A DNA stretch of 64,000 nucleotides from Leucoraja ocellata (Eukaryota): NCBI GenBank assembly GCA_036785375.1, contig JAWMAR010000344.1, forward strand, positions 124,001-188,000. Direction: 5' to 3'. The notes below the pieces were generated by a model that was given only the letters and a program-made list of their open reading frames with translations, searched no databases and had not been told where the DNA came from. The position numbers and the translations under genes were made by a program. Positions 7,234 through 59,810 of this stretch are shown here, piece after piece; position 1 is the first letter of the stretch; each line of letters opens with the position of its first letter.

Positions 7234-8819
7234 TAACTATTCATCTCCGCACAGATTCCATCTGACTTGCTGAATGTTTCCAGAGGTTTTTGATACTTAA
7301 TTAACTGTAAAATCTAACTTGTTGCTCACCCTGGTTTTTTTTAAACTTACTTAAAATAATTTCTTCAAATAAGCTTGTCGGTACCTTAGAACTCCTTCGC
7401 TTGATTTTCTTTTATTCTAATTTGAAGTATGTAGGTTGGTCTTTATTAAAATTGCTATACAATGTCAATTTTTTTTTTGCTGGAAGTGTATAAAGAATTT
7501 ACATTTCACATTTTTTAAGGTGACAGGCTAATTTCATAATACTCTTTTTTAAGTATGCTATCTTCTTGTCTTTATACATAGCAACCTGGGTTAAATAGAA
7601 GTGTAGTCTCTATGGTTTACAGATGAAAAATTAGTTTCCGTTTTTCAAGTGTGATTTGCCGTTCACGTTTAAATTTTCTGGATAATATTGGTGTCATGCT
7701 TTGCAGTTTAGGGTATTGAAAGGATATGCATTTTTTAAATTGTTTTTCTCATGGCAGTTGTTAAAGATTAAATTTTATTGAGTCAAGTACTGTGATTCAT
7801 CTTTAGTGTTCACGAATGACATCACAGATACTGTTGGTTAATGGTGCAGATATCCTGGAGTGCAATGATAGGTTTATCTAATAGTAAATCAACCTGTGAA
7901 TCGCACAGCAAGGTTTAGTGTCCAATTGTTGCCATGATCAAAGCTTTTTTACCTATTAATTGGAGATGGTATGTTCATTTGTATATCAGCAACTGCACAA
8001 AATAGTGAGAGGTGATGAGAAAATTTGATGTTTGATGTGTTTTTAATATGCTTTCAAAGGTCTATCAAAATAGTATTTCCAGTTGCCAGCAAATGTTTTT
8101 CCATTTGGAAGCAATTTCTAGCAAAAAAAGTAATGGTAATTGTCATCATTATTAGGATATTGTGTAACATTGAGAATGATTACAGTGTCATTTGAACCAG
8201 CTGCTATAGTGAGACTAAAATCTGATCAGATGTATTCCATCATGAACTCCACATAAATTGCAATGTGATGGGGATGGGGATTTTTAACAAACAAAATGGC
8301 ATATCCTGAAAGGAATGCCTCTATGGAATGTTCCCTCTGAGGAAGGAGAGGGAAGATATGTTTAGTATTTGGTGTTGGTCATTTGCTATTGAATGTGGAA
8401 CCTGGTGGGTTAGAAGAGGAGGACATGGAGATCCCTGTCCTGATTAAGAAAGGGTGTGTGGAACCATTAGAAGTATATCAACAGTGGGAAGAAAGTGTAC
8501 TTTAGTTGTGAGAGTCATAGACCATGGTTAGTAGCATGACTCCTGAAATGGATGTGAGAAGTTGAGGAAGGAAAAGGAATATTTTGAAAAGTGCCATGTG
8601 GAAAGTGAGAGAGGGGGAAATTACCTTTCCAGTGAATTAAAGGTAGAGAAAAATGCTGGAGAAACTCAGCGGGTGAGGCAGCATCTATGGAGCAAAGGAA
8701 ATAGGTGATGTTTCTGGTCGACATCCTTCTTCATATCTATAATAAGAAATACAGCAGACAGTTTGTGCAGCACATCAACAAAATGCTTGACAAAAGACAG
8801 GAAATCATGCTCTCCCCTA

Positions 8820-9235
8820 AGGGCACAGTGGTAGAACTGCTGCCTTATATCACGAGAGATGAGGGTTGAGCCTGACCTTAAGTGCTGTCTGCATGGAGAT
8901 TGCATGTTCTCCCGGTGATTACATGCGCTTCCTCTGGATGCTCCAGTTTCCTCCCACATCCCATGTGAGTGAATCAAAAGTTGGATGGCGTAGAACTAGT
9001 GTGAACAGGATAGACACAAAATGCTGGAGTAACTCAGCGGGACAGGCAGCATCTCTGGAGAGAAGGAATGCAGAGTCCCGCTGCCTGTCCCGCTGAGTTA
9101 CCCCAGCATTTTATGTCTAACTCCGATTAATACCAGCATCTGCATTTCATTCCCACACATAGTGTGAACAGGAGATCGATAGTCAGCGTCGACTTGGTGG
9201 ACTGTTTCAATGCTGTATCTTTCAATCAATCAAAC
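8820..9235 (+). mobile_element. HE1-like tRNA-derived SINE, interrupted at 9011-9159
   Basis: GGCACAGTGGTAGAACTGCTGCCT head; GGGTTGAGCC B-box-like motif; CR1-type tail ending (CAAT)n. Confidence 0.75.
9011..9159. mobile_element. Inverted-pair Penelope-derived short element with 14-bp TSD
   Basis: TAGTGTGAACAGGA duplicated at 8997-9010 and 9160-9173; interior is a head-to-head pair of the GCTGGAGTAACTCAGCGGG repeat. Confidence 0.75.
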
Positions 9236-16398: not shown

Positions 16399-16565
16399 CT
16401 CTGCCCTCAAATCTGATGGATACTCAACAACCATCTCCACCTCCAATGCCTCCTCAGGGCCACCTGCCAAAGTTTGTCTAGTTTGCTCGGATGAAGCGTC
16501 TGGATGTCATTACGGTGTTCTTACTTGTGGAAGTTGCAAGGTTTTTTTCAAGAGAGCTGTAGAAG
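16399..16565 (+). CDS. NR3C1: Glucocorticoid receptor exon 3 (first zinc finger, P-box)
   Basis: tttttcctctAG acceptor (16397-98), GTAAG donor (16566). Encodes ..[35 protein letters not shown](G). 167 bp, same as human NR3C1 exon 3 as I recall it. Confidence 0.97.
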
Positions 16566-17015
16566 GTAAGGATTTTAAAGTATTAATGTGTTTTAACCTA
16601 ATCATTATATTATAGGTAAGATGGGCAAAAGCAAAATTTTATTTTCATAAATTTATCAGTGCTTCCTGTGCCAAAGTGTAAAAAAGGAACTGCAGCAAGA
16701 AATGAAACCATATTGCAGAAAGAAATTAAAACGAAAAAGTGAAATTTGCCTCTGCTTATTTACGATTATGTAGAATATATATTGTGGAAATGCACTGTTT
16801 GACTCATCAGTACTTATGGGTTCCCTTGAACATTCTCCCAACTATCCTCATTTACTTTAATAATGTAACCTTCTATCCCCTTATCCCACCTCCCCATAAA
16901 TAAATCAATACAATTTGTTCCGTCACACTCTGTTGATGAGTTCCATATTCAAGGCACTCCTCTCAATTCGTTAGATAGACACAGGATGGGAGCATCCCTG
17001 GAGAAAAATAATAGG

Positions 17016-17618
17016 TGGGCTAATCTAGCGGCAACTAGAATGAGGAGAGTAGCGAGAATTCTCGAGCCGTAGGTGGGTCGCCAGGAGGTCGAAGGTTCTT
17101 GGAGGTTCTCGTAGGTTGTAGCCGGTGCTGACCGGTGAATTTCATTGGCTCATTGGGAGGAAAAAAAGGTAAGCAGTAGTTTTCAGAACCAAGGATAACC
17201 GACCGGTAATGTTAAATGTCCGCCGAGCTTCACAGCCATGTATCTCTGACTTCTTAACAGTTGTCTCCATTCCTTCTCCCTCTTTCCCCCCCCACCCCCC
17301 CCCCCCCCGCACCCTTTATAAGGATTTACCGTACACTGTGCTTTAGCCGTCTTTTTACAGCGCCAACCCTGTTCATCGCGGTGTGTGTCTGTTTCACCTT
17401 GGCTTTGCACATATGAATTTATTAGACAGCGCTCCCCCCACTTGCCCTGTCCCCCACCTGCATAACGGGCTGGTGAAGGAAGCGATGTGTGTGTGTGTGT
17501 GTGTGTGTGTGTTCCACTCTGACAGTCGCCGTTCCAGTTGCCGGTTTTTCAAGTGACTCCCGGCAACTTGACAGTCGCCGGCAGTCCGCTGAAAGATCGC
17601 CTAAGTGGGACAGGCCCA
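17016..17618. mobile_element. PIF/Harbinger-like MITE (left TIR damaged), contains (GT)n
   Basis: Right end AAGTGGGACAGGCCCA|TTA shared with the other Harbinger-like copies. Confidence 0.65.
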
Positions 17619-17769
17619 TTATATTCCCATATGCTTTGATAATTTGGATGAATTCACCAATGCCAAGTTATGTCACTATTGCCATGTGGAAACTAAATGC
17701 AAAGCTAAGTCTGCAAATTTACACAAAGCGCAAAGTGCTGGAGGAACTCAACAAGTCGGGCAGCATCAG

Positions 17770-18045
17770 ACCACCAGGGGCGCCGGGGTGATGGCAGCCC
17801 TGCCAGCAGTCTGTCCGTCCCGTCATCGGAGCGCTCAAGGCCCCCGACCGAGGAAGAACACAAGGACTTGAACTTTATTCTGCCTTCCATCACAGTGAGG
17901 AATGTGTAGGAGTCACTGTGGTGGATGTTCATGTCAAATGTGTTTTTGAGTCTGTTGCTTTTAATTGTATGACTGACCTGGCCAGTGAAATTCCTCGTAT
18001 GTTGCAAAACATACTTGGCGAATAAATTCTGATTCTGATTTTGAT
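17770..18045 (+). mobile_element. Two-hairpin retroposon family (copy F), nested in a Penelope-derived repeat
   Basis: TCCATCACAGTGA..TCACTGTGGTGGA stem; terminal hairpin 17997-18014; AATAAA plus (TTCTGA)n tail. Confidence 0.65.
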
Positions 18046-19137
18046 CTGTGGAGGGAACGGACAGACAACATTTTGTGTCAGGACCCTTCTTCAGACCTGA
18101 AACGTGTGTTTGTCAATTCCTTCCATAGATGCTGCTTGATCCATTGAGTTCTTCCAACACTGCGCATTTATTATTACTGTGCAACCTGTTTAGGATTTAA
18201 CAACTCAGTTAAGTATTTGAAAAGCGTGGATTCTCACTGGTATCTTATTACTTAACTGTGGCTAAGGAACACTCTTCCATCAACTCATCATTCCATAATG
18301 TAATTGCAAAACTGGCTCAACATCCCATATATTTATAGCATGTTCACCGCATTGAAGTATGCATCAAGTCTAACTCATTTGATCCACCCACTTAGCGTTG
18401 ATATAAGCCTCCTTTCACTGAAACAAAAAAAACCTGCAGAAAATCTGAAATGAAACTAGAAAAAATGGATACGCATCAGATCAGATGGGGAAATGGCGTT
18501 AATCAGAGATTATTGACCTGAAACATTAGCTCACATTTTCTATCCATAGATGTTGCCTGACTTGGCTGAGTGTCTGCTGCATTTTTTGTTTATTTCAAGC
18601 TTCTCTTACTTGTCGTCTTCGCTTGAATTTATTTCTGAGTCATAGCCATGGATACTTCAGCCCTTCGGCCCAACTTTTCCATGCTCTTAGCTCCAATTGA
18701 CTGCCACTATGCATATAATTAACACTTTGGGGAAATATTTGAATGGACTCAGTCCTTGCCTTGGTTATAAACAGTCAATTTGCAATTCTACCTACTTGTT
18801 TTGATGCATGACTGCATCCGAAATGTTAACTATCCTTTTGGCTTTATGGATGCTGCCTGAACCGTTGAATTTCTCCAGCATTTTTCGTTTTGCGTGTTCA
18901 TATTTTTGTTGCCTATAAAAAAATAAGCTATTCATATTGTCCCAGTCCTATATTGACTGGATTACTCTGCAATGGTCTTGTATCTTTGGTAGACACAAAA
19001 TACTGGAGTAACTCAGCGGGACACGCAGCATCTCTGTGCACATGTCTTTTGCAGGGTGTTGCCTCTGAACCATTGGGAAGTTCTAATGTTGGTTGTGCCA
19101 ATGGTATTTTCACTTAAATTTACTCTTTTCCATGTAG

Positions 19138-19254
19138 GGCAGCATAACTACCTCTGTGCTGGAAGGAATGACTGCATCATTGACAAGATTCGCCGAAAGA
19201 ACTGCCCAGCTTGTCGTTTCAGAAAGTGCCTCCAAGCTGGGATGAACCTTGATG
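19138..19254 (+). CDS. NR3C1: Glucocorticoid receptor exon 4 (second zinc finger)
   Basis: AG 19136-37, GTAAAT donor. [39 protein letters not shown]; 117 bp; phase matches exon 3. Confidence 0.97.
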
Positions 19255-21317
19255 GTAAATTTGATTCAACTATCTCCATTCAGACTATTGTGATCAAATG
19301 GGTAAATGGTGAAGTTATGGGAAAAGTTGGTAATGGGAGATATCTGGTTGTCCTTGCATTAAAATCAGAGAAATATAGTGCATCGCTTTAGTAACCTATT
19401 AAGAAAACAAATGATGTGTGATCCTTATAATGAAGGGACTGGAGTAAAGGAACAAAGCTTTATTAATAAAATTATATAGGAACATAATAGAGACACAAAA
19501 TACTTCAGATGCTAGAATCTAAAGCAAAAACAAACCAGGCAGCATCTGTGGGGGGAAATAGACTGTTAATGTTGGGGGTTGAGGGCTTTTCTCTGAATCA
19601 GACTTTCAATTTCCATCCACAAATGCTGTCTAATCCGCTGAGTTCCTCTGGCAGTTTGCTTTTTGATCTGACAAGAATACCCAATATTTACTTCTCTTGC
19701 AGCTTGTCCTTTGAGCCTATGTGGGGCTTTTTTAGGACAGTGTGGGAGACCAAAGGTGAGATGGAGAATTAACTTGGAGGCTCATGGTTGTCATTGCAGA
19801 TTGAACAAATATGTTTTGCACAAAATCAGTTCACAAAGTTGATAGAGGCACAAGAGAGTTACTGTTTCACTCGGATAGAAAATTTGGATCGCTGATTAGT
19901 TGGAGGAAGTAAAGGATAGGTGTTATATCTCATGTAGTTGCATGTGAAGCTGCTGTGAGAAGGGAATTGAGTGTTGGTAGGAGTGGAAGAGGGAAATAGG
20001 GGAGGTCACAGAAGAAATGGTCTAAATGTGGGGAAGATCAGATATGTCGGAGGATACTGAGTGAAAATTGCAGATACCCTGGTTGAGGTTTGTGAGTCGT
20101 CATTAAATAAGGCTGAGGTGCCAGAAGACTGGTGGGTCGTAAATGTTGTGCCTCTAAGATGGGCTGCAGGGAAAAGCCTGGGAACTACAAGCCAGTGAGT
20201 CTAACATCTGTGGTTGGAAAGTTACTGGACAGTATTCTGAGCGTTATTTATAAGATATAAGCATTTAGATGGACACTTGCTAATTGGGGATAGACAGCAT
20301 GGTTTTGTACGTGAGAGATCATGTCTCACAAATCATCTTGGGATTTTTGAAGATATGACCAAAACAATTGTTGGGTCAGCTGTAAACATATATTGATTTC
20401 AGCAAGGCATTTGACAAGGTTCCAAATGGTAGACTGCTCTGGAAGGTTAGATTGCATGGGATCGAAGGACTGATAGATGACTGGAGAGAAAATTGGCATC
20501 ATGGAAGAAAGCAAAGGGTAATGGTGGAAGGTTTTTTATCGGACTGTAGACCTTTGACCAGTGGTGTGCCTCAGGGTTCATTGCTGGGCCAATTGCTTTT
20601 GTCATCTATATCAATGATTTGGATTTGAACATACAAGGCATGATTAGCAAATTTGAAGATGATACTAAAGTGGGTGGTAGTGTAGATAGTGAAGATGGCT
20701 GTCAAAAATTGCAGAAGGATCGTGATCAATTGGTGGGCTGAGGAATGGTTGATGAAATTAAATATAGAGAAGTGCAAGGAGTTGCATTTTGGGAAGTCTA
20801 ACCAGGGCAAGGACGTACACAATAATTGTCAGGGCTCTGGGGAGTGTAGCATAGCAGAGGGATCTAAGAGTGCAGGTACAGAGCACCATGAAAGTGGCAT
20901 TGCAGGTAGATAGGGTGGTCAAGAAGGCTTTCGGCACATTGACCATTGTCAGTCAGAGTATTGAGTATAGAAGTTGGGAGGTCACATTATAGTTGTGTAA
21001 GGCATTGGTGAGACTGCATTTAGAGTATTACTAGACTAAGTGGGACCCGTTGGGTCCCATGATGACACGGGAGGGCTGGTCCACCAACACAATATTCCAC
21101 CTCTCCACCAATTCCAATATTGGTGGGCAGTGGAGGGCTTTCTGGAGCGTTAGTATGGGTGTTGTGGGCTAAAGGGACTGGTTTCATGAAGGCTAGTATG
21201 GACATTGTGGGCCAAATGAATTCTTGGGGTGGCAGCTCAGTCACTCAAGCCTGATGTGCTGGCAGCTCACTCACGGCTGGTGGGCTGGCAGTTGACTCAT
21301 GGCTATTCATTGAAATT

Positions 21318-21707
21318 CCATTTCAAGCAGGGTGCAAGGCCACCAAATTCAAATGCAGTTTCCTACCATTTCTAGCAGGGTGCAAGGCCACCAAATTCAA
21401 GTGCAGTTTCATACCACTTCAAGCAGGGTGCAAGGCCACCCAATTCAAGTACAGTTCCATACCACTTCAAGCAGGGTCCATTTCAAGCAGGATGCAAGGC
21501 CACCAAATTCAAGTGCAGTTTCGTACCACTTCAAGCAGGGTGCAAGGCCACCAAATTCAAGTGCAGTTTCATACTACTTCATGCAGGGTGCAAGGCCACC
21601 AAATGCAAGTGCAGTTTCATGCCATTTCAAGCAGGGTGCAAGGCCACCAAATTCAAGTGCAGTTTCATGCCGCATCAAGCAGGGTGCAGGGCCACCAAAT
21701 TCAAGTA
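21318..21707. repeat. 48-bp minisatellite, about 8 units, inside the Helitron
   Basis: Unit AAGCAGGGTGCAAGGCCACCAAATTCAAGTGCAGTTTCATACCACTTC. Confidence 0.92.
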
Positions 21708-22053
21708 AACACATAAAGTAAATTCACATAAACACACTCACAGTTCAGTAGACATTCAGTGTGTTCAGTTGATTCACAGCTCAGAGTCGTGACCGCTCCC
21801 TCCCCCATCTTGCATAGTGAGCCACACCCACACTTCCGTGGCTTTCATGCGTGATTGATAGGAGAGAGATTCTCAGCATTTTTTAAACACTAATAACACT
21901 TTTATTTTTCATTGATGGGAAGAATCTTCTGCACCTGATGAGCAGAGAGAGACTGAGTAAGATGGGGAAAAATCACAGCCATAAGTGGTAGCGTTTTATC
22001 TAAAATCAATATACAGTGCAAACAGGAAGTTGTCAAGTTTAGACTTTTAATCC

Positions 22054-22240
22054 AGTGCTTTATTTCAAACCAACCACCACCAACAATCATTTGCAGTGCT
22101 TTATTTTAAACCAACCACCATTTGCAGTGCTTTATTTCAAACCAACTACCATTTGCAGTGCTTTATTTCAAACCATCCACCATTTGCTTTGCTTTATTTC
22201 AAACCAACCACATTTTCATTTTCATTTTCAAACCACATTA
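22054..22240. repeat. About 31-bp minisatellite, about 5 units, inside the Helitron
   Basis: Unit TGCAGTGCTTTATTTCAAACCAACCACCATT. Confidence 0.88.
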
Positions 22241-23208
22241 AGGGCACTCAAGGTCAGTAAAACCACGCTCACAGTTTAGTAGACATGTGTTCAGGGTTAT
22301 TCACAGCTCAGATTGAGAGACGTGACCCTCTCGCTCCCCCATCTTGCAGAGACTGACTGAGGCACTCAACACTTCTGGGTTTTATAGTCCCTCCAGAAGG
22401 GGCGTGGCCTTCAGGAGAGAGAATCTCAACATTTTTTAAACACTAATAACTCTTTTATTTTTCATCAAAGGGGAAAATCCTCTTGTCCTGCACAGCAGAT
22501 GGCCAAAAATCACAGCCATAAGTGGCAACGTTTTTTCTAAAATCAATATACAGAACAATAGGAAGTGGTCAATATCAGACTTTCAGTAATATAGATGTTC
22601 TGTCCTGTTACCTTGTTATAGGAAAGATGGTGCTAAGCAGGAAAGGGAGCAGTGAAGATTTAGGAGGGTGTCGGAACGCAAGGCCCTGAACTTATAGGGA
22701 AAGGTTGAGCAGGAGGATGAGGGGTGATCTTACAGAGGTGTATAAGAACATGACGGGAATAGACAGGGTAAATGCACAGAGTATTTTACCCAATGTAGGG
22801 GAATCAAGAATTAGAGGACATAGGTTAAGGTGTGGGTTGCAAAGCTTCAATAGGAACCTGAGGGGCAACCTTTTTACACAAAGAGTGGTAGGTATTTGGA
22901 ATGAGCTGCTGGAAGAGTTAGTTGAGACATGTACTATCCCAACATTTAAAAATCATTTGGATATGTACATGGATAGGATTGGTTTGAAGCGATTATGGGC
23001 CAAACGCGGGCAGGTGGGACTAGTGTAGATTGGGCATGTTGGTCGTGAAGGGTTCCACGCTCTATGACTATGACTCAATCTCATAATTAAGCCATAATCA
23101 ATTAATGCCGTGTTATCAGTCACAGCAATGGCCTTTCCAATAAGATTTCGCTCTCAGATGGGACACCTCTTTCGAAACACTGCAGTAAATCTAAAATTTT
23201 ATTTGTAG

Positions 23209-23481
23209 CTCGGAAGACAAAGAAGAAGATGAAGGCGCCACACAGCAGCACCTCAGAAACCACAACAAAGGCAGTATCACAGGACCTTACTCTCGTGCGC
23301 CCTGCATTGCCTGTCTTAAGCCCATCTGTAACCTCGATCCTTGAGATGATTGAGCCAGATCTGTTGTATGCAGGATATGACAGCTCTTTGCCCGATACGC
23401 CTAACCGGCTTCTGTCAGGATTGAATAACTTGGGTGGGCTACAGATGGTCTCGGTTGTGAAATGGGCAAAAACTCTGCCAG
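23209..23481 (+). CDS. NR3C1: Glucocorticoid receptor exon 5 (hinge/NLS, LBD helices 1-3)
   Basis: AG 23207-08, GTAAGT donor. ARKTKKKMK...[44 protein letters not shown](G). ARKTKK and LGG are GR-like rather than MR-like; 273 bp. Confidence 0.96.
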
Positions 23482-23493
23482 GTAAGTGATAAT

Positions 23494-24370
23494 TATAGCC
23501 AGGATTTGCTTTTTCATGCTTTTTTTGATGATTTCACCAAGATAATGCCTTTTTCACAATCGAGTGCCTAAATCAGCATTTTTTTTGCCGTTTTGCTAAA
23601 ATGTTGTGCTATTTTCTCTAGTTACACCATGTTTTCTATGTCAACATGTTAATATTAATGTTATTATTAACGTGCTATCATAGTATAAATTGCAAGAAAA
23701 TTTCCACCACCGGGGGCGCCACCGTCGGCCGTTCATTCATTCGTGCCGCTGCCCGCTGGTTCAGTCTTCTCCAAAATCTATTTATTGCTTCCAATTTTGC
23801 AAACATCCCACAAGCAATCACTTCCCTTGAGAAACGTGGTGAAACATTAGTGAATAACTTGAAGGTTTTCAACAAAGTAACTGATGATATTCGTAAAGTT
23901 CCTGGCGATGTAGGTAGCAAAGACATACAAGGAAAATGTGAGAGAGTGATTTTAGCTAACAAAGATCATGAAGAAATACAAACATAGCTAAAGTTCGCAA
24001 AGGTAGTTGTAATGCACAAGATATCGACATGAATATAGTCTGTAGCTTGTTTCAGGTATGCACCAGTGACCTCAGCTGAGGTAGAAAGAAGTTTTTCACA
24101 ACTGAAGCATATTCTGTATGACAGACGGCATAGTTTAACATCAGATAATTTGAAAAAAAGGCTAGTAATTATGTGCGACCAAGCAACTTTGGTCATTTAA
24201 TGTAGTATATATATATTATTATTTTTAACCATATTTTGGTGGTGGAAACACATGCCTTTTTATGCCTTTTTATGGCAATAAATGTATTTTTCGTGCCTTT
24301 TTGTAATTTTTATTATGCCTTTTTGCCTGCCTATTTCAGAGTTTTTTAATGCCTAAACACCCTGGCTCTG
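23494..24370 (+). mobile_element. Internally deleted hAT transposon
   Basis: 8-bp TSD GTGATAAT (23486-93, 24371-78). TIR (T/C)A(T/G)AGCCAGG. Dimerization-domain remnant FRYAPVTSAEVERSFSQLKHILYDRRHSLTSDNL at ~24050-24155. Confidence 0.9.
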
Positions 24371-25467
24371 GTGATAATGCATTGTGCTTTGAAAATAGGC
24401 ATAGTCATTCTTAAATAGGTCCTTTTACCAGCATACATTTACCTCTTACCAGCATACATTTTCATGGATACCATTTGTCATACTTCATCTGAATGACTAA
24501 TATATGCTTGTGATTCACATGAGCCAGGTGCTTATAAACTATTTAATCACAAAGATTGTCACAATAAGCGAGTTCGGTATTCCGACTGCGCAAGCCCGGG
24601 TCATAGGTCACTACAGATAAACATTGGAGGGTGCAGATCTGCTGTGTGTTATTTTTGGTTATCAGACCTTCGTTTCAGTGAATGCTTTATGCACCCCCCC
24701 CCCCCCCCGCTCGGGTGTCCTGGCCTGAGGTGTCGGACCGGGTTCGCCGGGGGGGGTGGGGTTCGGTGCCAGCTCCATTCCGGCTCCCGGGTACTGCAGG
24801 CCGTGCCTCTCTCCCTGTCCAGTGGTCGTTGGTTTGCCCGCTCGGTGGAGGGTGTTGTGACTCAGACGGAGAGGTTTGGTGGCATCGGGGGCCGAGCGCC
24901 GGCCACCGGAGGGGACACACACGGGACGCTGCGGCAGGCCAGGCAACAATTCCGGAACCGAAACGTCACCCATTCAGTTTCTCTAGCCGAACCGCCCCGG
25001 CGGGGGCCAAGCGCCGGCCGTCAACGGGGCTGCGCACGCGGTGCTACGGCGGCTCAGCTGGACGGGCAGCATCTGCGCTGTGCCTCTTAATGTCTAAAAA
25101 AGACCATGACAAAGAGTATTATAGAAAATTGTGGGAGCACTGTTCCTGAAATGGACCAGCTTCATTATACACCTCAAAGGGTTCATGCCAAGATCCTCTT
25201 TAGATTTATCTTTGGTGGTGGAAGTTGTGTGTCAGAGTAGCCTAGCTGAGTATTTGCAATCCATTTTGACGATGGTGTTTACTGCAACAATGGTGCACCA
25301 GTGGCAAAGGGAATTAATGTTGCGGCTGCTAAATGTGTTGCCGAACAAGTTGTTTTTGTTAAGGATTGTGTTGATCTGTTGATTGTTGGAGCTGTACTCG
25401 GGCAACAAGACTTGGATATTGTTGGAGTGGTTCTCGGGCCACTATTGCTCTAGTTTATTGTGTTTTT

Positions 25468-25655
25468 CTGCCTATTTCAGAGTTTTTTAATGCCTAAACA
25501 CCCTGGCTCTGGTGATAATGCATTGTGCTTTGAAAATAGGCATAGTCATTCTTAAATAGGTCCTTTTACCAGCATACATTTACCTCTTACCAGCATACAT
25601 TTTCATGGATACCATTTGTCATACTTCATCTGAATGACTAATATATGCTTGTGAT
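25468..25655 (+). repeat. 188-bp direct duplicate of 24327-24514
   Basis: Identical by eye from CTGCCTATTTCAGAG to ATGCTTGTGAT. Confidence 0.93.
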
Positions 25656-25948
25656 GCAGCGGGTGCAGCAGCATCTATGGAGCGAAGGAAATAGGCAACG
25701 TTTCAGGCCGAAACCCTTCTTCAGTCTGCTCCATAGATGCTGCTGCACCCGCTGAGTTTCTCCAGCTTTTTTGTGTACCTTCGATTCTCCAGCATCTGCA
25801 GTTCCTTCTTAAGCAATATTTTAATGTTTGTTTGAGAAATTAAACTTTTTGTTAGAAGATCATTCCTAAGATATCCAGTGCTACAGTGTCCGATGATGTT
25901 TACTGATATTCAAGAGGAATCATGCAGAATATTTGTTTCTTTCTGCAG

Positions 25949-26093
25949 GATTCAGATCCTTACACCTGGATGACCAAATGATGTTACTGCAATATTCTTG
26001 GATGTCCCTTATGGTTTTCAGTCTTGCTTGGAGATCTTATAAACACTCCAATAGTAGCATGCTCTTCTTTGCACCGGATCTCATCTTCAATGA
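25949..26093 (+). CDS. NR3C1: Glucocorticoid receptor exon 6 (LBD)
   Basis: tttctttctgcAG acceptor, GTAAGT donor. [48 protein letters not shown](E); 145 bp; translated by hand (not in ORF track). Confidence 0.96.
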
Positions 26094-29084
26094 GTAAGTA
26101 CTGCATCACAAGTTGGCATGGGTGATTCTTAAAAAATATTCATAATCCCAAAAACTTGCCTTCGAAAGAAGAACAAAATGATGATATGGTAATAGTTATT
26201 TTAATTAAAACATAATATTGCTGTGAACCTGAGCTGGGCAATCGGTTTCACCCTTTGAAGTGACAGCAATGGATAGCTGACGGTACATCCCAGTGTTGTG
26301 GTAGTACTCTAACTTTTACTAGTAGAGTGGCATTTTGTTTAAAAGGAAAAGGAGAAATGGGATCCAAGTAACGTGAATCTGCAAAAGAAACAGGAAAAGG
26401 ACATGCAATCATCTGAATCAGTCTGAAGAAGGGTTCTGACCCAAAACGTCACATTCTATTTCTCCAGAAATGCTGCCTGACCCGCTGAGTTACTCCAGTA
26501 CTGTGTGTCATCATCTCATAAGCCAATTCCGCTATTCAATGTTATCATGGCTAACCCAATCACACCCTTGTCTCTAAAACACTTCCCTTGTGCTCTCCCC
26601 ATATCTTTGATTACCTTGTAGTGCAATTGCCTGTTACTTGAGTATACAGATTGTGTATACCTCAGGCTCAAGCACAGATACTTATGGTTCGCCATGTGTC
26701 ACTGTCTGCCAAACCTGGAAATGAAGCATTTAATCCCTCAATCCATGTCAGTAATTTAATCTTTTTCCGCCAACTCCATGGTCCATGTACAAAGATGAAG
26801 GATCAGAACAAGATTGATATGATCGATAACGTGCAGGATAAGGGAAATACAATTGGGATGTAACACAAGAACACACAGATATTTATCCTTTGTTAGGCTT
26901 GTCAAAATGCTTATTTTGGAGGAGGCGATCTGTGCAGACGGGAGAAAAGAAACAAAGCTTGTGTGGTATTTCAGAAGAATTTCATGATTGGGGAAACCAT
27001 GTGCTTTACTGAAATCTGAAACAAAAACAGAAAGCGTTTTATTCAATACCCAGCAGGTCAGGCGGAAAGAAAAACAGTTTACGTTTCAGGTCAAAAGCCC
27101 TTATCAAAACATACAGTTGTGTTACCTGCTAGGAAGGATATTGGAAAAGAAGGTGGCTCCATTCATTGTGGGTCATGTTCCAGTTTGGAGGTTACTTGGT
27201 AGTAACTTGCTGTGCTCCAAACTGTACAGCTCTGTGATAAAGATAAGGGAATTTTTGCAAGGGAGTGGAAAACCACAAGATCACTTTAATAAACAATGAG
27301 ATAAACCAGCTCAGTAAGCTCTAGAGATAGAATTTTAAAAACATTTGGTTGAGATTAACAGGGAAGTTATGCATGTGCACCCTGGTATAACAGAACTGCT
27401 GGAATGCATAATTACAAAAAATATAAACCATAGAGTAGTTTTAATATGGATTTTTACTTACACCCAGATCAATCTAAACTGGCTAACTTCATCTGAAAGG
27501 TGGTAAATATACGGAACAGGGGATCTAATGTTTTCCTATTAATTTCTAACATCTGATGAATAATCAATTTTGGACGGGATCCACCTTGCCCCATTGTAAA
27601 GCAAAAGAGATGCAAGCTTGCAGTCTATCATATGATGCCATCATCAGAACGCCACAGATTGGTAGCAAATATTTAGGGCACAAAAGAGATATTATTATTG
27701 AATGGTGACACATAATTTCACCACATCCTCTTGTGGAAGTTCCAGAATGTTGCAGTGTTAATAAGCACTTGCATAATTCTCACAATACTATTTTTCCCTT
27801 TTAAGTAATTGCACCAAAATCCTGTGTCCTCATCAATTTTTGTGCCAATCAGCAGAGAGACTGATGAAGACACAGATATCTCAGAGTTGTTCTTGCTTTA
27901 TCATTGCTTCTCGATGGGCTGATAAAGGTGCTGATGGCCTCTAATGATAGCCCTGGTTAGTTCTGGCCATGGGAAAGTTTGTTTTCACCCCTTCTTCTCT
28001 TTCCTTACCTGAAACAATTTTGTCTCCTTTGCACCTTTGTCACTATCTCTACTGTTAACCAATTACTTGTCAGGCTTTGCCTCGTTCCTACTTCTCTTCA
28101 GCTTTCTTACCCTAGTCTTTGTCTGAAGAAAGGGTCCCAGTCTCAACCTTGGTCTGTCCATTCCCTCCATAGATTCTAAGTAAACCACAGTGCTGGAGTA
28201 TTTCAGTGGGTTAGGCAGCATCTAACGGAGAACATGGATGGCTGACATTTTGTGTTGGGGCCCTTCTTTAGACTGAAGAGGCCTGACCCAAAATATCATC
28301 TATCTATGTTATCCAGAGATGCTGCCCGACTCGCTGAATTACTCCAGCACTTTTTGTCTTTTTTGTAAATCGGCATCTGCAGTTCCTTGTTTATTCCACC
28401 ATAGGTGCTGTGTAATCTGCTGTTCATCTAGCACTTTGTTATTTTGCTTGATGTTTCTGTTCACTGTTAATGAATTGAATGGTATGATTAAGGACAGTGC
28501 TTCATGCAATTACAATGAATCATCAGTAGATTAATTTTTGATGATCTTGACTAAGCTTGCACAATGCTGAGAATATTTAGTCATTCACAAGGCACAGTAT
28601 CTCTGATAAACAACAGTATTTGAAGAGACATTGTAATTTCTCCTTGGGCATAAAAATGATTAAGATCTTTATAGTTAAGTGACATCTTAATTACAAGAAG
28701 ATAGGCATAAAATGCTGGAGTAACTCAGCGGGACAAGCAGCATCTCTGGAGAGAAGGATTTGGTGGTGTTTCGGGTTGAGACCCTTAATTGCAAGACTAG
28801 TATGATATTTAAGATTTTTTAATCTCAATGTGCATGTTTCAGTGTTCATTTCACACTCAGTAAAATATTTAAACTGCAAGTTGGAAGTTGTGTTGTACTT
28901 CCTGGATAGCTGCCTGAGATAATTCCTAAATAACCTCAAGCCCAACTTGACAGTATCTGAAATCCATTGTTCTTAAATTGATGCCTTAATGCCAGACAAA
29001 TGACAATAGAAAACAGCATGTTTTTGGCACGAGGGGTTTAGCAGCAAACATACTATTATCATTGCTTAAAAGAACATGAACTCA

Positions 29085-29312
29085 GAGTTGCGAGTCTGTG
29101 GAATTCTCTGCCTCAGAGGGCGGTGGAGGCAGGTTCTCTGGATGCTTTCAAGAGAGAGCTAGATAGGGCTCTTAAAAATAGCGGAGTCAAGGGATATGGG
29201 GAGAAAGCAGGGACGGGGCACTGATTGGGGATGATCAGCCATGATCACATTGAATGGCGGTGCTGGCTCGAAGGGCCGAATGGCCTACCCCAACACCTAT
29301 TGTCTATTGTCT
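29085..29312 (+). mobile_element. CR1-like LINE 3' tail
   Basis: SLWNSLPQRAVEA remnant; (CTATTGT)n tail. Confidence 0.85.
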
Positions 29313-29433
29313 AAATATTGAATATAAAAAAGTGTTCAGGGTAAAAAACTTAATTTGCAATTCTTTCAATAGCAAATGTAAAGGAATATAACAAGAATGA
29401 TGTACATGTTGACATTTTCTTTTTTAATTAAAG

Positions 29434-29564
29434 GGAGCGGATGCAGCAGTCAACTATGTACAGTTTGTGCAAAGGAATGGGCAACATTGCAGTAGATTTC
29501 AGAAACCTTAAGGTTGCCTATGAAGAATATCTATGCATGAAGGCATTACTGCTGCTTGGCACAA
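29434..29564 (+). CDS. NR3C1: Glucocorticoid receptor exon 7 (LBD)
   Basis: AG 29432-33, GTAGGT donor. ERMQQSTMYSLCKGMGNIAVDFRNLKVAYEEYLCMKALLLLGT; 131 bp; translated by hand. Confidence 0.95.
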
Positions 29565-29573
29565 GTAGGTATT

Positions 29574-30749
29574 ACCATATAACCATATAACAATTACAGC
29601 ACGGAAACAGGCCATCTCGACCCTTCTAGTCCGTGCCGAACACGTATTCTCCCCTAGTCCCATATACCTGCGCTCAGACCATAACCCTCCATTCCTTTCT
29701 TGTCCATATAACTATCCAATTTATTTTTAAATGGTAAAAACGAACCTGCCTCCACCACCTTCACTGGAAGCTCATTCCACACAGCCACCACTCTCTGAGT
29801 AAAGAAGTTCCCCCTCATGTTACCCCTAAACTTCTGTCCCTTAATTCTCAAGTCATGTCCCCTTGTTTGCATCTTCCCTCCTCTCAGTGGGAAAAGCTTA
29901 TCCACGTCAACTCTGTCTATCCCTCTCATCATTTTAAAGACCTCCATCAAGTCCCCCCTTAACCTTCTGCGCTCCAAAGAATAAAGCCCTAACTTGTTCA
30001 ACCTTTCTCTGTAACTTAGTTGCTGAAACCCAGGCAACATTCTAGTAAATCTTCTCTGTACTCTCTTTATTTTGTTGACATCCTTCCTATAATTAGGCGA
30101 CCAAAATTGTACCCCATACTCCAGAATTGGCCTCACCAATGCCTTGTACAATTTTAACATTACATCCCAACTTCTATACTCAATGCTCTGATTTATAAAG
30201 GCCAGCACACCAAAAGCTTTCTTTACCACCCTATCTACATGAGATTCCACTTTCAGGAAACTGTGCACACTTATTCCCAGAGCCCTCTGTTCACCTGCAT
30301 TCTTCAATTCCCTACCATTTACCATGTACGTCCTATTTTGATTTGTCCTGCCAAGATGTAGCGCCTCACACTTATCAGCATTAAACTCCATCTGCCATCT
30401 TTCAGTCCACTCTTCCAACTGACATAAATCTCTCTGTAGACTTTGAAAATCCTCTTCATTATCCACAACCCCTCCTATCTTAGTATCATCTGCATACTTA
30501 CTAATCCAATTTACCACACCATCATCCAGATCATTGATGTACATGACAAACAACAGTGGACCCAACACAGATCCCTGTGGCACCCCACTAGTCACTGGCC
30601 TCCAACCTGACAAACAACCATCCACCATTACTCTCTGGCATCTCCCATTCAGCCACTGTTGAATCCATCTTGCTACTCCACCATTAATACCCAACCATTG
30701 AACCTTCTTAACCAACCTTCCATGAGGACTTCTTAACCAACCTTCCATG
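29574..30749 (-). mobile_element. Young 5'-truncated CR1/HER1-like LINE with open RT C-terminal frame
   Basis: 364-aa ORF with GVPQGSVLGPLLF, KYADDTK, ERRRLRGDL; (TTATATGG)n tail; TSD AGGTATT (29567-73 / 30750-56). Confidence 0.95.
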
Positions 30750-31931
30750 AGGTATTCATCTTGGTAATATTATTAGATTGGGCACATCATGTGAATCCTT
30801 CAGTTAATTTGTAGATGTTAGTCTCAGTGCAGTTATAAATATATATAAACTATTAAGGGTTAATGCAATGTGGCCAGTTTCTTATATCAGTACATTGTGT
30901 CATGATTATCTGAATATTATTTGACGATTTCTACCTCTTTGATTGATGTCCCTTGGACTAGCCTTGACCGGACTTTACTGGCTTTACCTTACACTAAACG
31001 TTTTCCCGTATCATGTATCTGTACACAGTAAATGGATTGACTGTAATCATGTATTGTTTTTCTGCTGTCTGGTTAGCACACAACAAAAAGCTTTTCACTG
31101 TACCTCAGTACACGTGACAATGAACTGAACTGATTTCTAATTTTGTAATGCCATTATAGAAAAATTATAAAGTGAATACAAGAACATAGCAGGAGTATGC
31201 CATTTGGCCCCTTGAGCCTATCCTGCCATCATCCTGATCATACTCATCTGCTCCTGAACACTGCCTCTTCTGTGCCAATTCTTCACATCTCTCAAATTCC
31301 TGATCTTGCATAAATTGCCTGATCTACTTCCTCTTTAAAATTCCAACGGTGATCTTGCCATTAGATTTACCCACAAACCAAACAAAAATCCTCATGTCGT
31401 TTCTGTCATGCTTGATTGAGCATCAAACTACTTAATGAGTGCCCTGGGCAATTTATCCTAATAACTAGCTTTCTCAAGTTGGATCCATTAAATGCCTTTG
31501 ACGGCAGCAATTATTGAAGGTGACTCACCACCTTGAGGGCACCTGTGATGGGCAATATTTGATAATGTTGCTAGCAATGTGCCCATATCCTTAAAATAAA
31601 TAATCAGTTGGTGTACAATCAAGACCTTAAAGCAATTGTACTTAAAAGTTTGTGCACATCAATGTACTAAATTAAATTTGTCTGTTTAGTCAATTCATAA
31701 TTAGGCTCAATAACAGTAATTTTTGGGTCTACGATAGGACATAGATTGGAGCCACACTCCAGCACTTGGACTCGGCTAATACTGATTGATGGTGGATGGA
31801 TGCACCATGGAAGCAGGTCCTTTGGCCCACCGTTTATTTCCCATTTATATCCCATATCATCTATTGCTATGTTATGGCTTTTGCTTACTCTCACTGCATA
31901 AATCACAAAAGGTGTTTTTCTTCCTCTGCAG

Positions 31932-32089
31932 TACCAACAGATGGCTTGAAGAGCCAGGCTACATTTGATGAGATTCGAACCTCGTACATAAAAGAGCTGG
32001 GGAAAGCCATAGTGAAGAAAGAGGGAAACTCGAGCCAAAACTGGCATCGTTTTTATCAGCTGACTAAACTTTTGGATTCAATGCATGAT
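31932..32089 (+). CDS. NR3C1: Glucocorticoid receptor exon 8 (LBD)
   Basis: ttcctctgcAG acceptor, GTAAGT donor. [53 protein letters not shown]; 158 bp. Confidence 0.97.
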
Positions 32090-32344
32090 GTAAGTAAAAT
32101 TCTGGGGAAAAGTAAATGTTTCAAGTATTCCAGCAGACATGCTAACATCAATTAAATTATTGGTTGGTAAACATTTCCTGCAGAGGCAAATTGGAAATGT
32201 AATAGTGTAATATTTTTCAGGACCTGAACAACTACAGTGTTCATTGTCCATACTTGAGAAGGCCTGGTAATCTGCCACCACCACAGTAAATGTCCGGGTC
32301 CAGATGATGAGCAACTTGGAGGGGAACTTGGAAGTGGTGGTGAC

Positions 32345-32487
32345 CTTTATTAACTGGCCTTTATTAATATCTGACAATGTGCACTTTAACCACATGTGGT
32401 TTTTACTATTACAAATTTCAAATTATGGAGTACAGAGGCAAATAAAAAATGATGGGTCTTTGGCCCAAACATTATGGAGGGCACTGT
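32345..32487. mobile_element. Solo Tc1 TIR fragment
   Basis: Matches the TIR at 58770-58899, ending ATGGAGGGCACTG|TA. Confidence 0.8.
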
Positions 32488-32844
32488 AGAATGGTATGTG
32501 CATGGGTGGTGGAAACAGAGACAATAGCAGCATTTATGAAGTACCAGGTGTATTCTGATGAAATTACTTTAAATTGGCATCACAGTTGGAACAGACATCT
32601 TGGGCAAATGGCCTGTTTCTCTGCTGCATTGTTCCCTGTTTCATAAAATAAAGTTTTACTATTTTGGCCTCAGAGCTACACAGAAAATAAGTATTCACTT
32701 CGTTCCTTATCCTGTCATCAAAACGTTGAATAAAGTTTACTACTTTATATCACTGTGTAGAGACTAAAATCTTAAAAGCACCAATGCTGGCATTGACTGG
32801 TTAATGTGCCTGCTAAACACTGCCATTTTCCTTCATAAAATACT

Positions 32845-33880
32845 ATTAGACCATTCCCTCCATAACTCCCTGGCCAATTTGCACCTTCCCACCCAAACCA
32901 TCCCCTCCCGGGTACTTCCCCTTGCAACCTTTCCCCATGTTCCCGATGTTGGGGGAGTCCAGAACCAGGGGCCACAGTTTAAGAATAAGGAGTAAGCCAT
33001 TTAGAACGGAGACGAGGAAACACTTTTTCTCACAGAGAATGGTGAGTCTGTGGAATTCTCTGCCTCAGAGGACGGTGGAGGCAGGTTCTCTGGATGCTTT
33101 CAAGGGAGAGCTAGATAGGGCTCTTAAAAATAGCGGAGTTAAGGGATATGGGGAGAAGGCAGGAACGGGGTACTGATTGGGGATGACCAACCATGATCAC
33201 ATTGAATGGCAGTGCTGGCTCGAAGGGCCAAATGGCCTACTCCTGCACCTATTGTCTATTGTCAACCGCAGGAAATGCTACACTTGTCGCTTTACCTCTG
33301 TCCTCGACTCCATCCAAGGATCCAAGCAGTGTTTCCAAGGATCCTGCACCTCGTCCAACCTTATCTACTGCATCAGCTGTTCCAGGTGTCAACTTCTCTA
33401 CATCGGCGAGACCAAGCGTAGGCTTGGCGATCGTTTTGCCCAACACCTCTGCTCAGTTCGCACTAACCAACCTGATCTCCCGGTGGCTCAGCACTTCAAC
33501 TCTCCCTCCCATTCCGAATCTGACCTTTCAGTCCTGGGCCTCCTCCATTGCCAGAGTGAGGCCAGCGCAAATTGGAGGAACAGCACCTCATATTCCCATA
33601 CACCCCAGCGGTATGACCATTGACTTCTCTAATTTCAGGTTGTCCTTGCTTTCTCCCTCCTTCCCCTCCCCTTCCCAGTTCTCCCACAAACATACTGTCT
33701 CCGCCTCTTCCTTTCTTTTTCCCGTCCCTCCCCCCCCCCCCCCCCAACATCAGTCAGAAGAAGGGTCTCGACCCGAAAGTTCGCCTATTCCTTCTCACCA
33801 TAGATGCTGCCTTACCCGCTGAGTTCCTCCAACATTTTTGTCTGCCTTCGATTTTTCCAGTATCTGCAGTTCTTTCTTAA
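32845..33880 (+). mobile_element. Penelope-like element 3' part (GIY-YIG endonuclease remnant plus terminal repeat)
   Basis: SSNLIYCISCSRCQLLYIGETKRRLGDRFAQH..PVAQHFN; frameshifted; ends in the abundant GAAGAAGGGTCTCGACCCGAAA repeat. Confidence 0.88.
32930..33262 (+). mobile_element. CR1-like 3' fragment nested in the Penelope element
   Basis: ESRTRGHSLRIR..GYGEKAGTGY; TSD CAACC (32925-29 / 33263-67). Confidence 0.9.
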
Positions 33881-34442
33881 ATATTAAAATGTTAACGTTC
33901 ACTCAGTTTAACAGATGAGGGTTGAAAATACAAATTATTATAATCTATAGATGTGAACATTAAATGAGTTGACAATAGTGCAATTAATGAGTTTTATCAA
34001 CAAACCTTGGAAACAGATTAAACAAAGGAATAGTGAATTTTAGGTTGTGTTGTGAAACTTTCCTTTTTCCAGCAAAATGGCAAATTTGACTAAGATCAGG
34101 GTGGCGAATATAAATAAGATTTTGTTCATGTAATAATTTACTGTCAGAGCCAGCACTTCATATACATTTTTTACAGTTGTTTTTATAAGGGTGTGATAGA
34201 TGGTCGGCATGGACCAGGTGGGCCAAAGGGCCTGCTTCCATGTAATTTTCAATCTAATAAGATTGCTCACCAGGAGTTCTCTATCTCAAGATATTTTTCC
34301 AAACTATAACACCTCAGAAATCCGGCATGTCCACTGTGTAATACTTTTTACATTTTCACAATTTTAAATCCCCCTTCAGAAATGTTGACTTTACGCGTGC
34401 TTTGTTTCGGTTTGCTAATATTCTTGTTATTTTCTCTTTTAG

Positions 34443-34598
34443 TTGGTGGAAGGGCTCTTGCAGTTTTGTTTTTATACCTTTATGCAATCAAAGACACTCA
34501 GCGTGGAGTTCCCCGAAATGTTGGTGGAGATTATTAGCAACCAGTTACCAAAAGTCATGGCTGGAATGGCCAAACACCTCCGGTTTCACCACAAGTGA
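34443..34598 (+). CDS. NR3C1: Glucocorticoid receptor exon 9 coding part (AF-2, stop)
   Basis: ttctcttttAG acceptor. [51 protein letters not shown]; TGA at 34596-98. Confidence 0.97.
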
Positions 34599-40497: not shown

Positions 40498-40690
40498 AGG
40501 ACACATAATGCTGGAGTAACTCAACAGGCCTGGTAACATCTCTAGAGAACATGCATGGATGATATTTCAGGTTGAGACTGATCATAAGTCTGAAGAAGGG
40601 TCCAGACCTGAAACATCACCTATCCCATGTTCTCCAGAGATGCTGCATGACCTGCTGAGTTACTCCAGCTCTTTGTGTCCTTTTGTGTAA
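40498..40690. mobile_element. Inverted-pair Penelope-derived short element
   Basis: GGACACATAATGCTGGAGTAACTCA ... TGAGTTACTCCAGCTCTTTGTGTCC arms around CTGAAGAAGGGTCCAGACCTGAAAC. Confidence 0.75.
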
Positions 40691-43420: not shown

Positions 43421-43862
43421 TGAATTGAATTGAATTTAATTGAATTCCATTATTGTCATTCAGACCTTACGGTCTGAACAACATTTTGTGCCTGCAGTCA
43501 TACATACAATCATACAATAATAAACAACACTAAACACAAATTAACATCCACCACAGTGTATCCTCCAAGCACCTCCTCACTGTGGTGGAGGCAAAAATCT
43601 TAGGGCTGCAGTCTCTTCCCTCCTCTTCTCCCTCTGCGCTGAGGCGATTCCCCACAGGGCGATGACACAAACAGTCCCGCGGCTCACCGAACCCCGCAAA
43701 CGGGCCGGCTCAAACACCGCGGCCCGGGGTGGTCGAAGCTGCCGCCCCCCATTCCAGCGGACTCAGGTCATAGCCGCCAGAACGCCGTCCCAGCCATTGG
43801 AGCACCGTTCCAGCTCCGATCCGGATCGCCCTCACGGGAGTGCCGTTCCTCCCTCGAGCTGG
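43420..43862 (-). mobile_element. Two-hairpin retroposon family (copy D)
   Basis: (AATTC)n tail; hairpin 43459-78; TCCACCACAGTG..CACTGTGGTGGA stem; GC-rich body. Confidence 0.7.
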
Positions 43863-44452
43863 GCCAGGGGAGCACATGGTCTTGGTGAGACCACACCTGG
43901 AGTATTGCGTACAGTTTTGGTCTCCTAATCTGAGGAAGGACAATCTTGCCATAGAGGGAGTACAGAGAAGGTTCACCAGACTGATTCCTGGGATGTCAGG
44001 ACTTTCATATGAAGAAAGACTGGATAGGCTCGGCTTGTACTCGCTAGAATTTAGAAGATTGAGGGAGGATCTTATAGAAACTTACAAAATTCTTAAGGGG
44101 TTGGACAGGCTAGATGCAGGAAGATTGTTCCCGATGTTGGGGAAGTCCAGAACAAGGGGTCACAGTTTAAGGATAAGGGGGAAATCTTTTAGGACCGAGA
44201 TGAGAAAAACATTTTTTACACAGAGAGTGGTGAATCTCAGGAATTCTCTGTCACAGAACGTAGTTGAGGCCGGTTCATTGGCTATATTTAAGAGGGAGTT
44301 AGATGTGGCCCTTGTGGCTAAAGGGATCAGGGAGTATGGAGAGAAGGCAGGTACAGGATACTGAGTTGGATGATCAGCCATGATCATATTGAATGACGGT
44401 GCAGGCTCGAAGGGCCGAATGGCCTACTCCTGCACCTATTGTCTATGTTTTT
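43863..44452 (+). mobile_element. CR1-like LINE 3' fragment
   Basis: LVRPHLEYCVQFWSP..YGEKAGTGY; very similar to 55368-56015. Confidence 0.92.
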
Positions 44453-46286: not shown

Positions 46287-46502
46287 TGCCCCTGTCCCAC
46301 TTAGGAAACCTGAACTGAAACCTCTGGAGACTTTGTGTCCCACCCAAGGTTTCCTTGCAGTTCCCAGAGGTTTTTCTCAGTCTCCCTACCTGCTTCCACT
46401 ACCTGCAACCACCTCCAACCTCCGGGAACCGCACGGAAACCTTGGGTGGGGCGCAAAGTCTCCAGAGGTTTCCGTTCAGGTTTCCTAAGTGGGACAGGGG
46501 CA
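46287..46502. mobile_element. PIF/Harbinger-like MITE, intact
   Basis: About 68-bp near-perfect TIRs beginning TGCCCCTGTCCCACTTAGG; TSD TTA on both sides. Confidence 0.92.
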
Positions 46503-49617: not shown

Positions 49618-49710
49618 GTAGACAAAAGTGCTGGAGAAACTCAGCGGATGAGGCAGCATCTATGGAGCGAAGGAAATAGGCAACGTTTCGGGCCGAAACC
49701 CTTCTTCAGA
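49618..49710 (-). mobile_element. Penelope-derived short repeat, best-preserved hammerhead-like core
   Basis: Minus strand CTGAAGA-A-GGGT-TTCG-GCCC-GAAAC-GTTG, followed by the family body. Confidence 0.7.
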
Positions 49711-59475: not shown

Positions 59476-59810
59476 GTTGCCTTCTATATTGAATTTGAAG
59501 AAGGGTCCCAACCCAAAACGTTGTCTGTCCATTCCCTCCCCTGATGCTGCCAGATCCGCTGAGATTTTACAGCACTTTGTGCTTTGATTAGGATTCCAGA
59601 ACCTGCAATCTATTGTGTCCCTCGATCACATCATACTCACTCTGCATCCAGTCTGCTCATTAAAATAAACAGGATAACTGTAACTGCACCCATCTAACCT
59701 AGTGCATGTTTTGTGAGCAGAATTAAAAATTCCACAAAGAATCTAATGGCAATGTGTAATCAAAAAAACGCAGTGGTAGAAGTTCATAATTCCCTGTCTG
59801 TGCACAATGA

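Follow-up and report, generated by a model that had tools for sequence, protein, structure and literature searches.

A minimal-hammerhead repeat of Leucoraja ocellata and its probable origin as the 3' end of a Penelope-like element

An abundant short repeat in a 64,000-nucleotide stretch of Leucoraja ocellata DNA (contig JAWMAR010000344.1 of assembly GCA_036785375.1, positions 124,001 to 188,000; this whole stretch is called the window below) very probably represents, by its sequence, the last 93-130 bases, a minimal hammerhead plus tail, at the 3' end of a Neptune-type Penelope-like element (PLE). The short copies, referred to here as stumps, are probably dead-on-arrival 3' ends. They were probably left when the element's own reverse transcriptase set out from a point about 95 or 130 bases into the RNA and soon reached an RNA 5' end, where it ran off; this run-off mechanism itself stands at about an even chance. 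The hammerhead has already been described, and the family belongs to a known type, the PLE end with a minimal hammerhead. An account of the family in cartilaginous fish was not found in mostly open papers, Repbase excluded; the main text of PMC4209133, in its available part, names no cartilaginous fish, and its supplement may list a shark or ray example.

Copies of the repeat and their parent element

A profile built from 160 seed copies gave 32 family matches in the window (15 plus, 17 minus) and 642 in a genome sample of 1.2 Mb, taken as 120 spaced 10-kb stretches of which 110 were positive, while the reversed 1.2-Mb control gave no profile match for the repeat family. The exact core pattern occurs 90,619 times across the 3.44-Gb genome (control 0). 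Extrapolation from the 1.2-Mb sample leads to a family of about 1.8 million matches, or about 4% of the DNA, a figure that counts paired arms twice and includes duplicated haplotypes. Positions in the element are numbered with C3 of the hammerhead as 0, which is window position 49709. The main copies in the window, and the host gene beside them, are as follows.

49618..49710, minus: focal stump, element positions -1 to +91
49682..49709, minus: minimal hammerhead core of the focal stump (sequence, descriptor scan and PMC4209133)
49618..49681, minus: linker together with the conserved GATGCTG...GCTGAG block, reaching to the main 3' end (+91 to +96), likely the reverse-transcription start region by analogy with PMC11167929
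~32856..33883, plus: 5'-truncated long copy with a broken hammerhead at 33755-33782 and a tail to about +128
32910..33262, plus: unrelated LINE 3' fragment inside the long copy (self-BLAST)
8649..8733, minus: stump, core mutated (profile)
9009..9122, no single strand: head-to-head pair, both arms without the core (profile)
11031-11088, 11141-11220 and 11498-11566, minus: three stumps, cores missing or mutated, the first without its CUGAAGA half (profile)
14451-14542, plus, and 14848-14930, minus: stumps, cores mutated (profile)
18044..18165, no single strand: head-to-head pair, cores mutated (profile)
25645..25779, no single strand: head-to-head pair in a receptor intron, its antisense minus arm (C3 at 25724) passing the relaxed descriptor
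26423..26511, plus: stump in a receptor intron, sense, G12 changed to A (profile)
28123-28177 plus, 28180-28270 minus, 28275-28362 plus and 28699-28786 minus: four arms, cores mutated (profile)
40498..40682, no single strand: head-to-head pair, past the point where the receptor mRNA probably ends (profile and RNA reads)
59496..59584, plus: stump, core mutated (profile)
16430..34598, plus: coding exons of the glucocorticoid receptor, stop codon at 34596-34598

All 12 places at which an earlier note on this DNA had located the repeat hold a family member, and the same sequence does end the GIY-YIG fragment that the note had recognised (about 32856-33883, Pfam GIY-YIG 22.7 bits). This long copy comprises a coding part at about 33263-33630, with a Cys linker and the GIY-YIG domain, followed by a pyrimidine-rich pLTR ahead of the hammerhead, whose core is broken (CAGAAGA and GAAAGTT). 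The bounds of the LINE insert are given by a joint of 32909 to 33263 in RNA reads and DNA contigs; Pfam returned no family for this fragment, which we take to be CR1-like from its motif. Other mobile DNA lies at 2792-6229 (minus), 24039-24197, 29654-30769, 42351-44364, 46302-46487 and 55504-56022. It includes a hAT dimerisation fragment and a 186-base near-perfect inverted repeat, together with what are presumably, by their motifs, an L1/Tx1-like reverse transcriptase (RT) frame and several CR1-like RT fragments.

Of its 93 bases the focal copy shares 86 with the 3' end of the full-length element L182, and against the sample's nearest long copy the identity is 89 of 92. In L182, a full-length partial tandem, two direct repeats lie 4.2 kb apart and are 99.4% alike; each carries a hammerhead, and a frame for RT and endonuclease (RT-EN) stands between them. 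A second element, L181, has an open frame of 1215 amino acids and aligns to 12 of the 13 other long-frame loci at 90-99%; among the 14 long-frame loci, 11 end in the focal copy's UUCG/GUU motif or a near variant. The RVT_1 domain was found in L036, L181 and L182, with the GIY-YIG domain C-terminal, and the L181 protein has a C-x4-C-x2-C linker ahead of the endonuclease and a CCHH motif composed of a CxxC inside GIY-YIG plus two His. Such a Cys linker and the CCHH motif define Neptune/Nematis, not Poseidon (PMC8557442). Because of the identity with L182 and the long copies, together with the linker and CCHH, the repeat is read as the end of a Neptune-type element, an assignment made on the linker motif; an initial assignment to Poseidon was dropped because the Cys linker is present between RT and endonuclease. 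The derivation from a PLE end, as the earlier note had it, is thus upheld by identity with full-length RT-EN copies. In L181 (residues ~150-490; L182:3301-4004) a long proline-rich insert with a tandem repeat in multiples of 36 bases lies between the N-terminus and the RT.

A genome search with the window endonuclease gave 122,333 first-look candidates and one with the RT gave 15,129. An endonuclease-only unit of 730 bases, suggested by loci L042 and L047, was rejected since other copies extend into the RT, 30 endonuclease loci doing so with scattered 5' ends. At L042 and at L047:924-2094 a truncated copy follows immediately on the 3' end of an older one that belongs to another subfamily (82% alike), an arrangement that suggests insertion at the element's own tail. 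The 3' ends of copies fall into two classes, +91..+96 (main) and +112..+131.

The 5' edge and the origin of the stumps

The 5' ends of the copies cluster at -3..+10, at about 35-fold the upstream rate; the cleavage site has no such cluster. A junction could be assigned in 550 of the 642 matches, 507 of them with enough aligned body, and the stop rate per base was 0.006-0.03 from +45 to +2 and 0.125 at -4..+1. Among 197 copies at least 92% like a reference, with tandem-array stretches removed, 27 junctions were at -3, 4 at -4, 11 at -2 and 10 at -1; the -3 peak is partly an artefact, simulated cuts at -30 and -10 being called at -3 in 6/56 and 11/56 cases. The youngest subfamily is free of this artefact. 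Thirty of its copies, chosen on +41..+83 only (28,828 exact occurrences genome-wide), comprise 12 long ones (-68 or further), 18 short ones (-3..+28) and none that ends between -4 and -67, and the junction mode is -2. After merging of 2 same-flank duplicates, 14 of 26 copies at risk stop in -3..+10, which is the 35-fold rate given above. Along a long reference, coverage in 600 kb rises from 12-20 upstream to 128-265 over 0..+90, which puts stumps to long copies at about 10:1. The search of mostly open literature, without Repbase, found no published description of a sharp 5' edge in PLE stumps.

At the predicted cut site the 197 copies gave no peak (+27..+29 held 4 junctions, the 12 positions around it 15). 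A junction bump at +19 turned out to be a tandem-array effect. One young head-to-head pair, L227/L228 (G000 C1 near 335,890), has both arms beginning exactly at +28, the predicted cut site, and is the only hint of a cleaved template (2 of 30 young arms).

Directly at the junction, target duplications of some 12-17 bases were present in 11/49 copies with junctions at -5..-1 (controls 1/147) and in 9/33 at 0..+10 (controls 2/99), hence in 20/82 short copies (controls 3/246) against 0/25 deeper truncations (p 0.003); about three quarters of the short copies have no abutting duplication. The 5' pile-up together with the abutting duplications suggests run-off from an RNA that starts at TCAGT. Transcripts would begin at this initiator-like TCAGT just before the hammerhead, and TCAGTCT fits the initiator consensus. 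The RT would prime internally at the first tail and run off after about 100 bases, long copies would come from the downstream tail of read-through RNA, and priming on both cut strands would produce head-to-head arms. Only in the active lineage would the hammerhead be under selection, working there as a dimer or helped by the element's protein. For a Poseidon element of a lizard, RT was found in vitro to start internally at two tail ends and to extend both cut strands, with uncut RNA as the main template (PMC11167929), internal priming thus being published for Poseidon and not for Neptune; Penelope has an internal pLTR promoter (PMC2377424).

A more specific version is put forward as a doubtful proposal. 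The RNA would start at TCAGT, 3 bases before the hammerhead; internal priming would turn each transcript tip into a 100-base insertion; the first 30 bases of the hammerhead would be the internal promoter; and stumps that keep them would be the smallest polymerase II retroposons, about 4% of the genome, made without ribozyme cleavage. No clear sign of a cap-derived G precedes AGT: among the 27 non-C cases 11 have G, where the background is about 0.28. RNA reads cover the motif deeply, but at no position do many molecules begin or end, and the reads are uninformative on start site and cleavage because they are drawn from many passenger copies. In single-cell runs antisense reads over the motif exceed sense reads by about 3.6 to 1 (bulk run 1.1 to 1), perhaps through internal priming.

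The edge could instead be a stop signal, at which RT on a long read-through RNA stalls or is freed at the 5' strand of the ribozyme by an RNA fold, a bound protein or an endonuclease nick near TCAGT. A predicted long hairpin that pairs -8..+10 with +33..+51 in place of the hammerhead has its 5' arm in the pile-up zone, as this reading would have it. In most clusters, however, shuffled linkers give folds just as good as the hairpin (23-249 of 300), and a conserved 'off' hairpin was rejected for the same reason. The sum of the two junctions in the 52 head-to-head pairs is not constant, which also led to rejection of fold-back self-priming at a fixed hairpin, and the empty interval between -4 and -67 resembles a hard end and not a slow zone. 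We regard a stop signal as possible but improbable.

A self-sufficient non-autonomous mini-element is less likely again. In this case TCAGT and the first 30 bases would be an internal promoter, the RT start would be kept, and the stumps would be copied in trans by the full-length element's protein, as the tenfold excess of stumps, the initiator-like look of TCAGTCT and the internal promoter known from Penelope would allow. Against it, when 217 copies, all reaching the core, are sorted into nine sequence clusters, long and short copies occur together in 8/9 of them. Young stumps also match the full-length RT-EN elements at their 3' end with 95-100% identity, most copies have a ragged 5' end that lacks TCA, and 133 short copies have no common upstream flank; the two clusters poor in long members (2/21 and 1/15) would also fit short masters. 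The same mixing of long and short copies and the varying 5' ends, with the lack of tandem ribozyme units, tell against the separate non-autonomous, retrozyme-like family that the earlier note had proposed.

Stumps copied from a spliced RNA, with the edge as a 3' splice site joined to an upstream exon, are decidedly unlikely. In every long copy, including the one in the window (33640-33754), a pyrimidine-rich tract closes with CAG and is followed by T at -1, which resembles a 3' splice site, and the intron of D. virilis Penelope ends at helix I (PMC4209133). Against this, the target duplications in the 20/82 short copies abut the junction with no exon between, the 133 short copies share no upstream exon, junctions at -2 and -3 outnumber those at -1, and no GT..AG joint ends there among the 15 joints listed of 94. 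Run-off from an RNA starting at TCAGT is the preferred reading of the edge.

The hammerhead motif and the glucocorticoid receptor gene

The focal copy reads CUGAAGA-A-GGGU-UUCG-GCCC-GAAAC-GUU on the minus strand, as first reported: CUGAAGA at 49709-49703, an extra A at 49702, stem II (GGGU/GCCC with a UUCG loop) at 49701-49690, then GAAA, a palindromic ACGU helix III and the GUU triplet, with the predicted cut between 49682 and 49681. A single stem I pair (U-G) is kept, since the junction lies at -1. The core boxes, the extra base and the palindromic helix III fit the minimal type I hammerhead of PLEs, so that this identification holds. The extra A at +7, which had been listed as a caveat, corresponds to the extra nucleotide after A9 given as a conserved trait of minimal PLE hammerheads (PMC4209133, Cervera and de la Pena 2014). 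The core described for the repeat as a whole is exact in only 1 of the 32 window matches (49709), and two (49709 and 25724, both minus) pass a relaxed minimal-hammerhead descriptor. In 1.2 Mb the descriptor has 56 matches, 38 with a possible 2-bp stem I and 55 with the ACGU helix III.

The CUGANGA/GAAA core with an NUH triplet is present in young full-length copies and in the cluster consensuses. G8-C19 (G10.1-C11.1) is found in 8/9 consensuses and a G-U in 1, and helix I has two pairs (U-A or U-G, G-C) followed by mismatches. Positions 0-10 are invariant in 9/9 consensuses and the linker in 7/21 columns, the former partly by construction since the clusters were made from copies reaching the core. 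The pairing GGGT/ACCC at 33763-33774 was correctly reported, but the variable stem positions change on one side and remain pairable (U-A/U-G, C-G/U-G), so they are not the compensatory changes implied by a stem kept paired between variants; the covariation score of 0.268 was reached by 437/500 shuffles (16 sequences, from a young and uniform family).

The hammerhead core decays neutrally after insertion, like its flanks. For this comparison 52 copies were picked on endonuclease and downstream block, blind to the hammerhead (67 were anchored and 15 without the downstream anchor dropped). Non-CpG bases of the core match in 496/515 cases against 802/830 downstream (p 0.76), and core CpGs in 118/155 against 89/104 (p 0.08), the anchor favouring the downstream figure; G12 and the helix III CpG decay like CpGs. 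An intact core was kept in 18/52 of these copies, and most copies are broken and likely inert. As far as conservation goes, inserted copies thus show the outcome that the earlier note had named as refuting its idea. The Rfam search that this note had suggested, run on the window and on short regions, yielded no hammerhead family with E<=10, and loop-less minimal hammerheads probably fit the Rfam models badly. In the folded consensus the stem II probability was 0.0 and a forced hammerhead fold was 6-8 kcal/mol worse, a 4-bp intermolecular helix III adding only about 3 kcal/mol in the model.

In the host gene, zinc fingers were located near 16475 and 19155 (113 of 170 frames scanned) and ligand-binding exons near 23400, 25950-26093, 29432-29565 and 31950-32095; the exon for the GCR N-terminus is found 26 kb before the window begins. 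On unique sequence the few RNA reads stop near 39.8 kb, beside two polyadenylation-like hexamers. With the stop codon ending at 34598 and the reads near 39.8 kb, the focal copy is placed downstream of the gene, 15 kb past the stop and antisense. The view that the repeat sits in receptor introns applies to copies such as 25645..25779 and 26423..26511 and fails for those at 40588, 49618 and 59497, which lie beyond the gene (last coding exon ending at 34598). Nor is a seeding of ribozymes in these introns supported, as no plus-strand (sense) copy inside the gene passes the descriptor. The receptor region stands twice and inverted on the contig, at 124001-188000 and, on the opposite strand, near 800-864 kb; the two copies are 99.97% identical over 3.3 kb, probably through assembly duplication of haplotypes. 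That stumps are working ribozymes, or retrozyme-like circular RNAs, cutting host transcripts such as the receptor pre-mRNA is very unlikely: the roughly 90,000 exact cores genome-wide, the 56 descriptor matches (38 with a possible stem I) and the abundant motif reads in RNA runs are set against neutral decay of the core, the absence of tandem ribozyme units and of an intact sense copy in the gene, the unfavourable fold, and published minimal-hammerhead monomers that do not cut (PMC4209133) or, in the lizard element, cut only with protein (PMC11167929).

Comparison with known systems

With the minimal hammerheads of PMC4209133 the motif has in common the CUGANGA/GAAA core, a single additional base separating 9 from 10.1, the G10.1-C11.1 pair, a palindromic helix III without a loop and the location in the pLTR, and in both cases the motifs are mostly dispersed, single and tied to truncated elements. 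The stems differ: stem II has 4-5 bp and stem I 2 bp here, against 7-8 and 4-5 in S. mansoni and 6 and 2 in D. virilis. So does copy number, about 90,000 exact and about 1.8 million extrapolated here against 4,000-9,000 motifs in coelacanth and Xenopus (PMC4209133). With endonuclease-bearing (EN+) Neptune PLEs (PMC8557442, Craig et al. 2021; PMC3846280, Arkhipova et al. 2013) the family shares a single RT plus C-terminal GIY-YIG frame, the CX2-5CxxC linker, CCHH, partial tandem pLTRs, an inverted 5'-truncated copy, an optional tail of 30-40 bases and target duplications; the extreme excess of stumps of about 100 bases with a sharp 5' limit sets it apart from them. PAc, the Poseidon of Anolis carolinensis (Frangieh et al. 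2024, PMC11167929), likewise carries its hammerhead where pLTR and ORF meet, has 3' ends of two classes some 35 bases apart and gives no sign of cut RNA as template. Poseidon is, however, without the Cys linker, and the PAc ORF starts in stem II whereas the first ATG in the ORF frame of L182 is about 164 bases beyond C3.

Metazoan non-LTR retrozymes (PMC7229834; bioRxiv 10.64898/2026.07.22.740005, Li et al.) are also non-coding, hammerhead-bearing and derived from PLE pLTRs, but retrozymes come as tandem units, every unit with its own, mostly canonical, hammerhead, and are expressed as circles; the copies here are scattered singly or in head-to-head pairs, and their 5' ends are ragged. A retrozyme identity was rejected on the same-strand gaps between intact motifs (1221-5793 bases, at least 1.2 kb) and on the 2-bp helix I as against the canonical 6-bp one. 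No unit-length back-joint stood out among the 15 joints listed of 94, in RNA libraries ill-suited to circles.

A truly non-autonomous derivative does exist, and it is young and, by its sequence, ribozyme-less: a 66-base unit that spans +20..+85 of the element end is arrayed in tandem and keeps GAAAC-GUC and the downstream block without CUGAAGA and stem II. Arrays were found at L081:363-655 and 1382-1706, L091:705-1868, L117, L166 and L195-L224 (G000 C1 18.05-20.6 Mb), and none in the window. Their units are 90-99% alike, with 2-12 per array and 23,712 exact junctions genome-wide; they have often grown from an older stump and sometimes form a higher-order unit of 225 bases. The arrays are regionally clustered, several in each of 4/120 stretches, with a 54-base variant in 2 more. 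An apparent one-strand bias was a listing effect, and both strands occur.

The ribozyme aspect of the family is known ground, and its value lies in the record it keeps of how Penelope-like elements copy themselves, a poorly understood process. Over more than 1 million insertions the 3' end is fixed at two places, and the 5' limit is hard and falls just before the cut site instead of on it, which speaks for uncut RNA as the template. The position of the edge yields a precise prediction for the RNA start, and with young near-intact full-length copies at hand the protein, the RNA start and the role of the ribozyme become directly testable.
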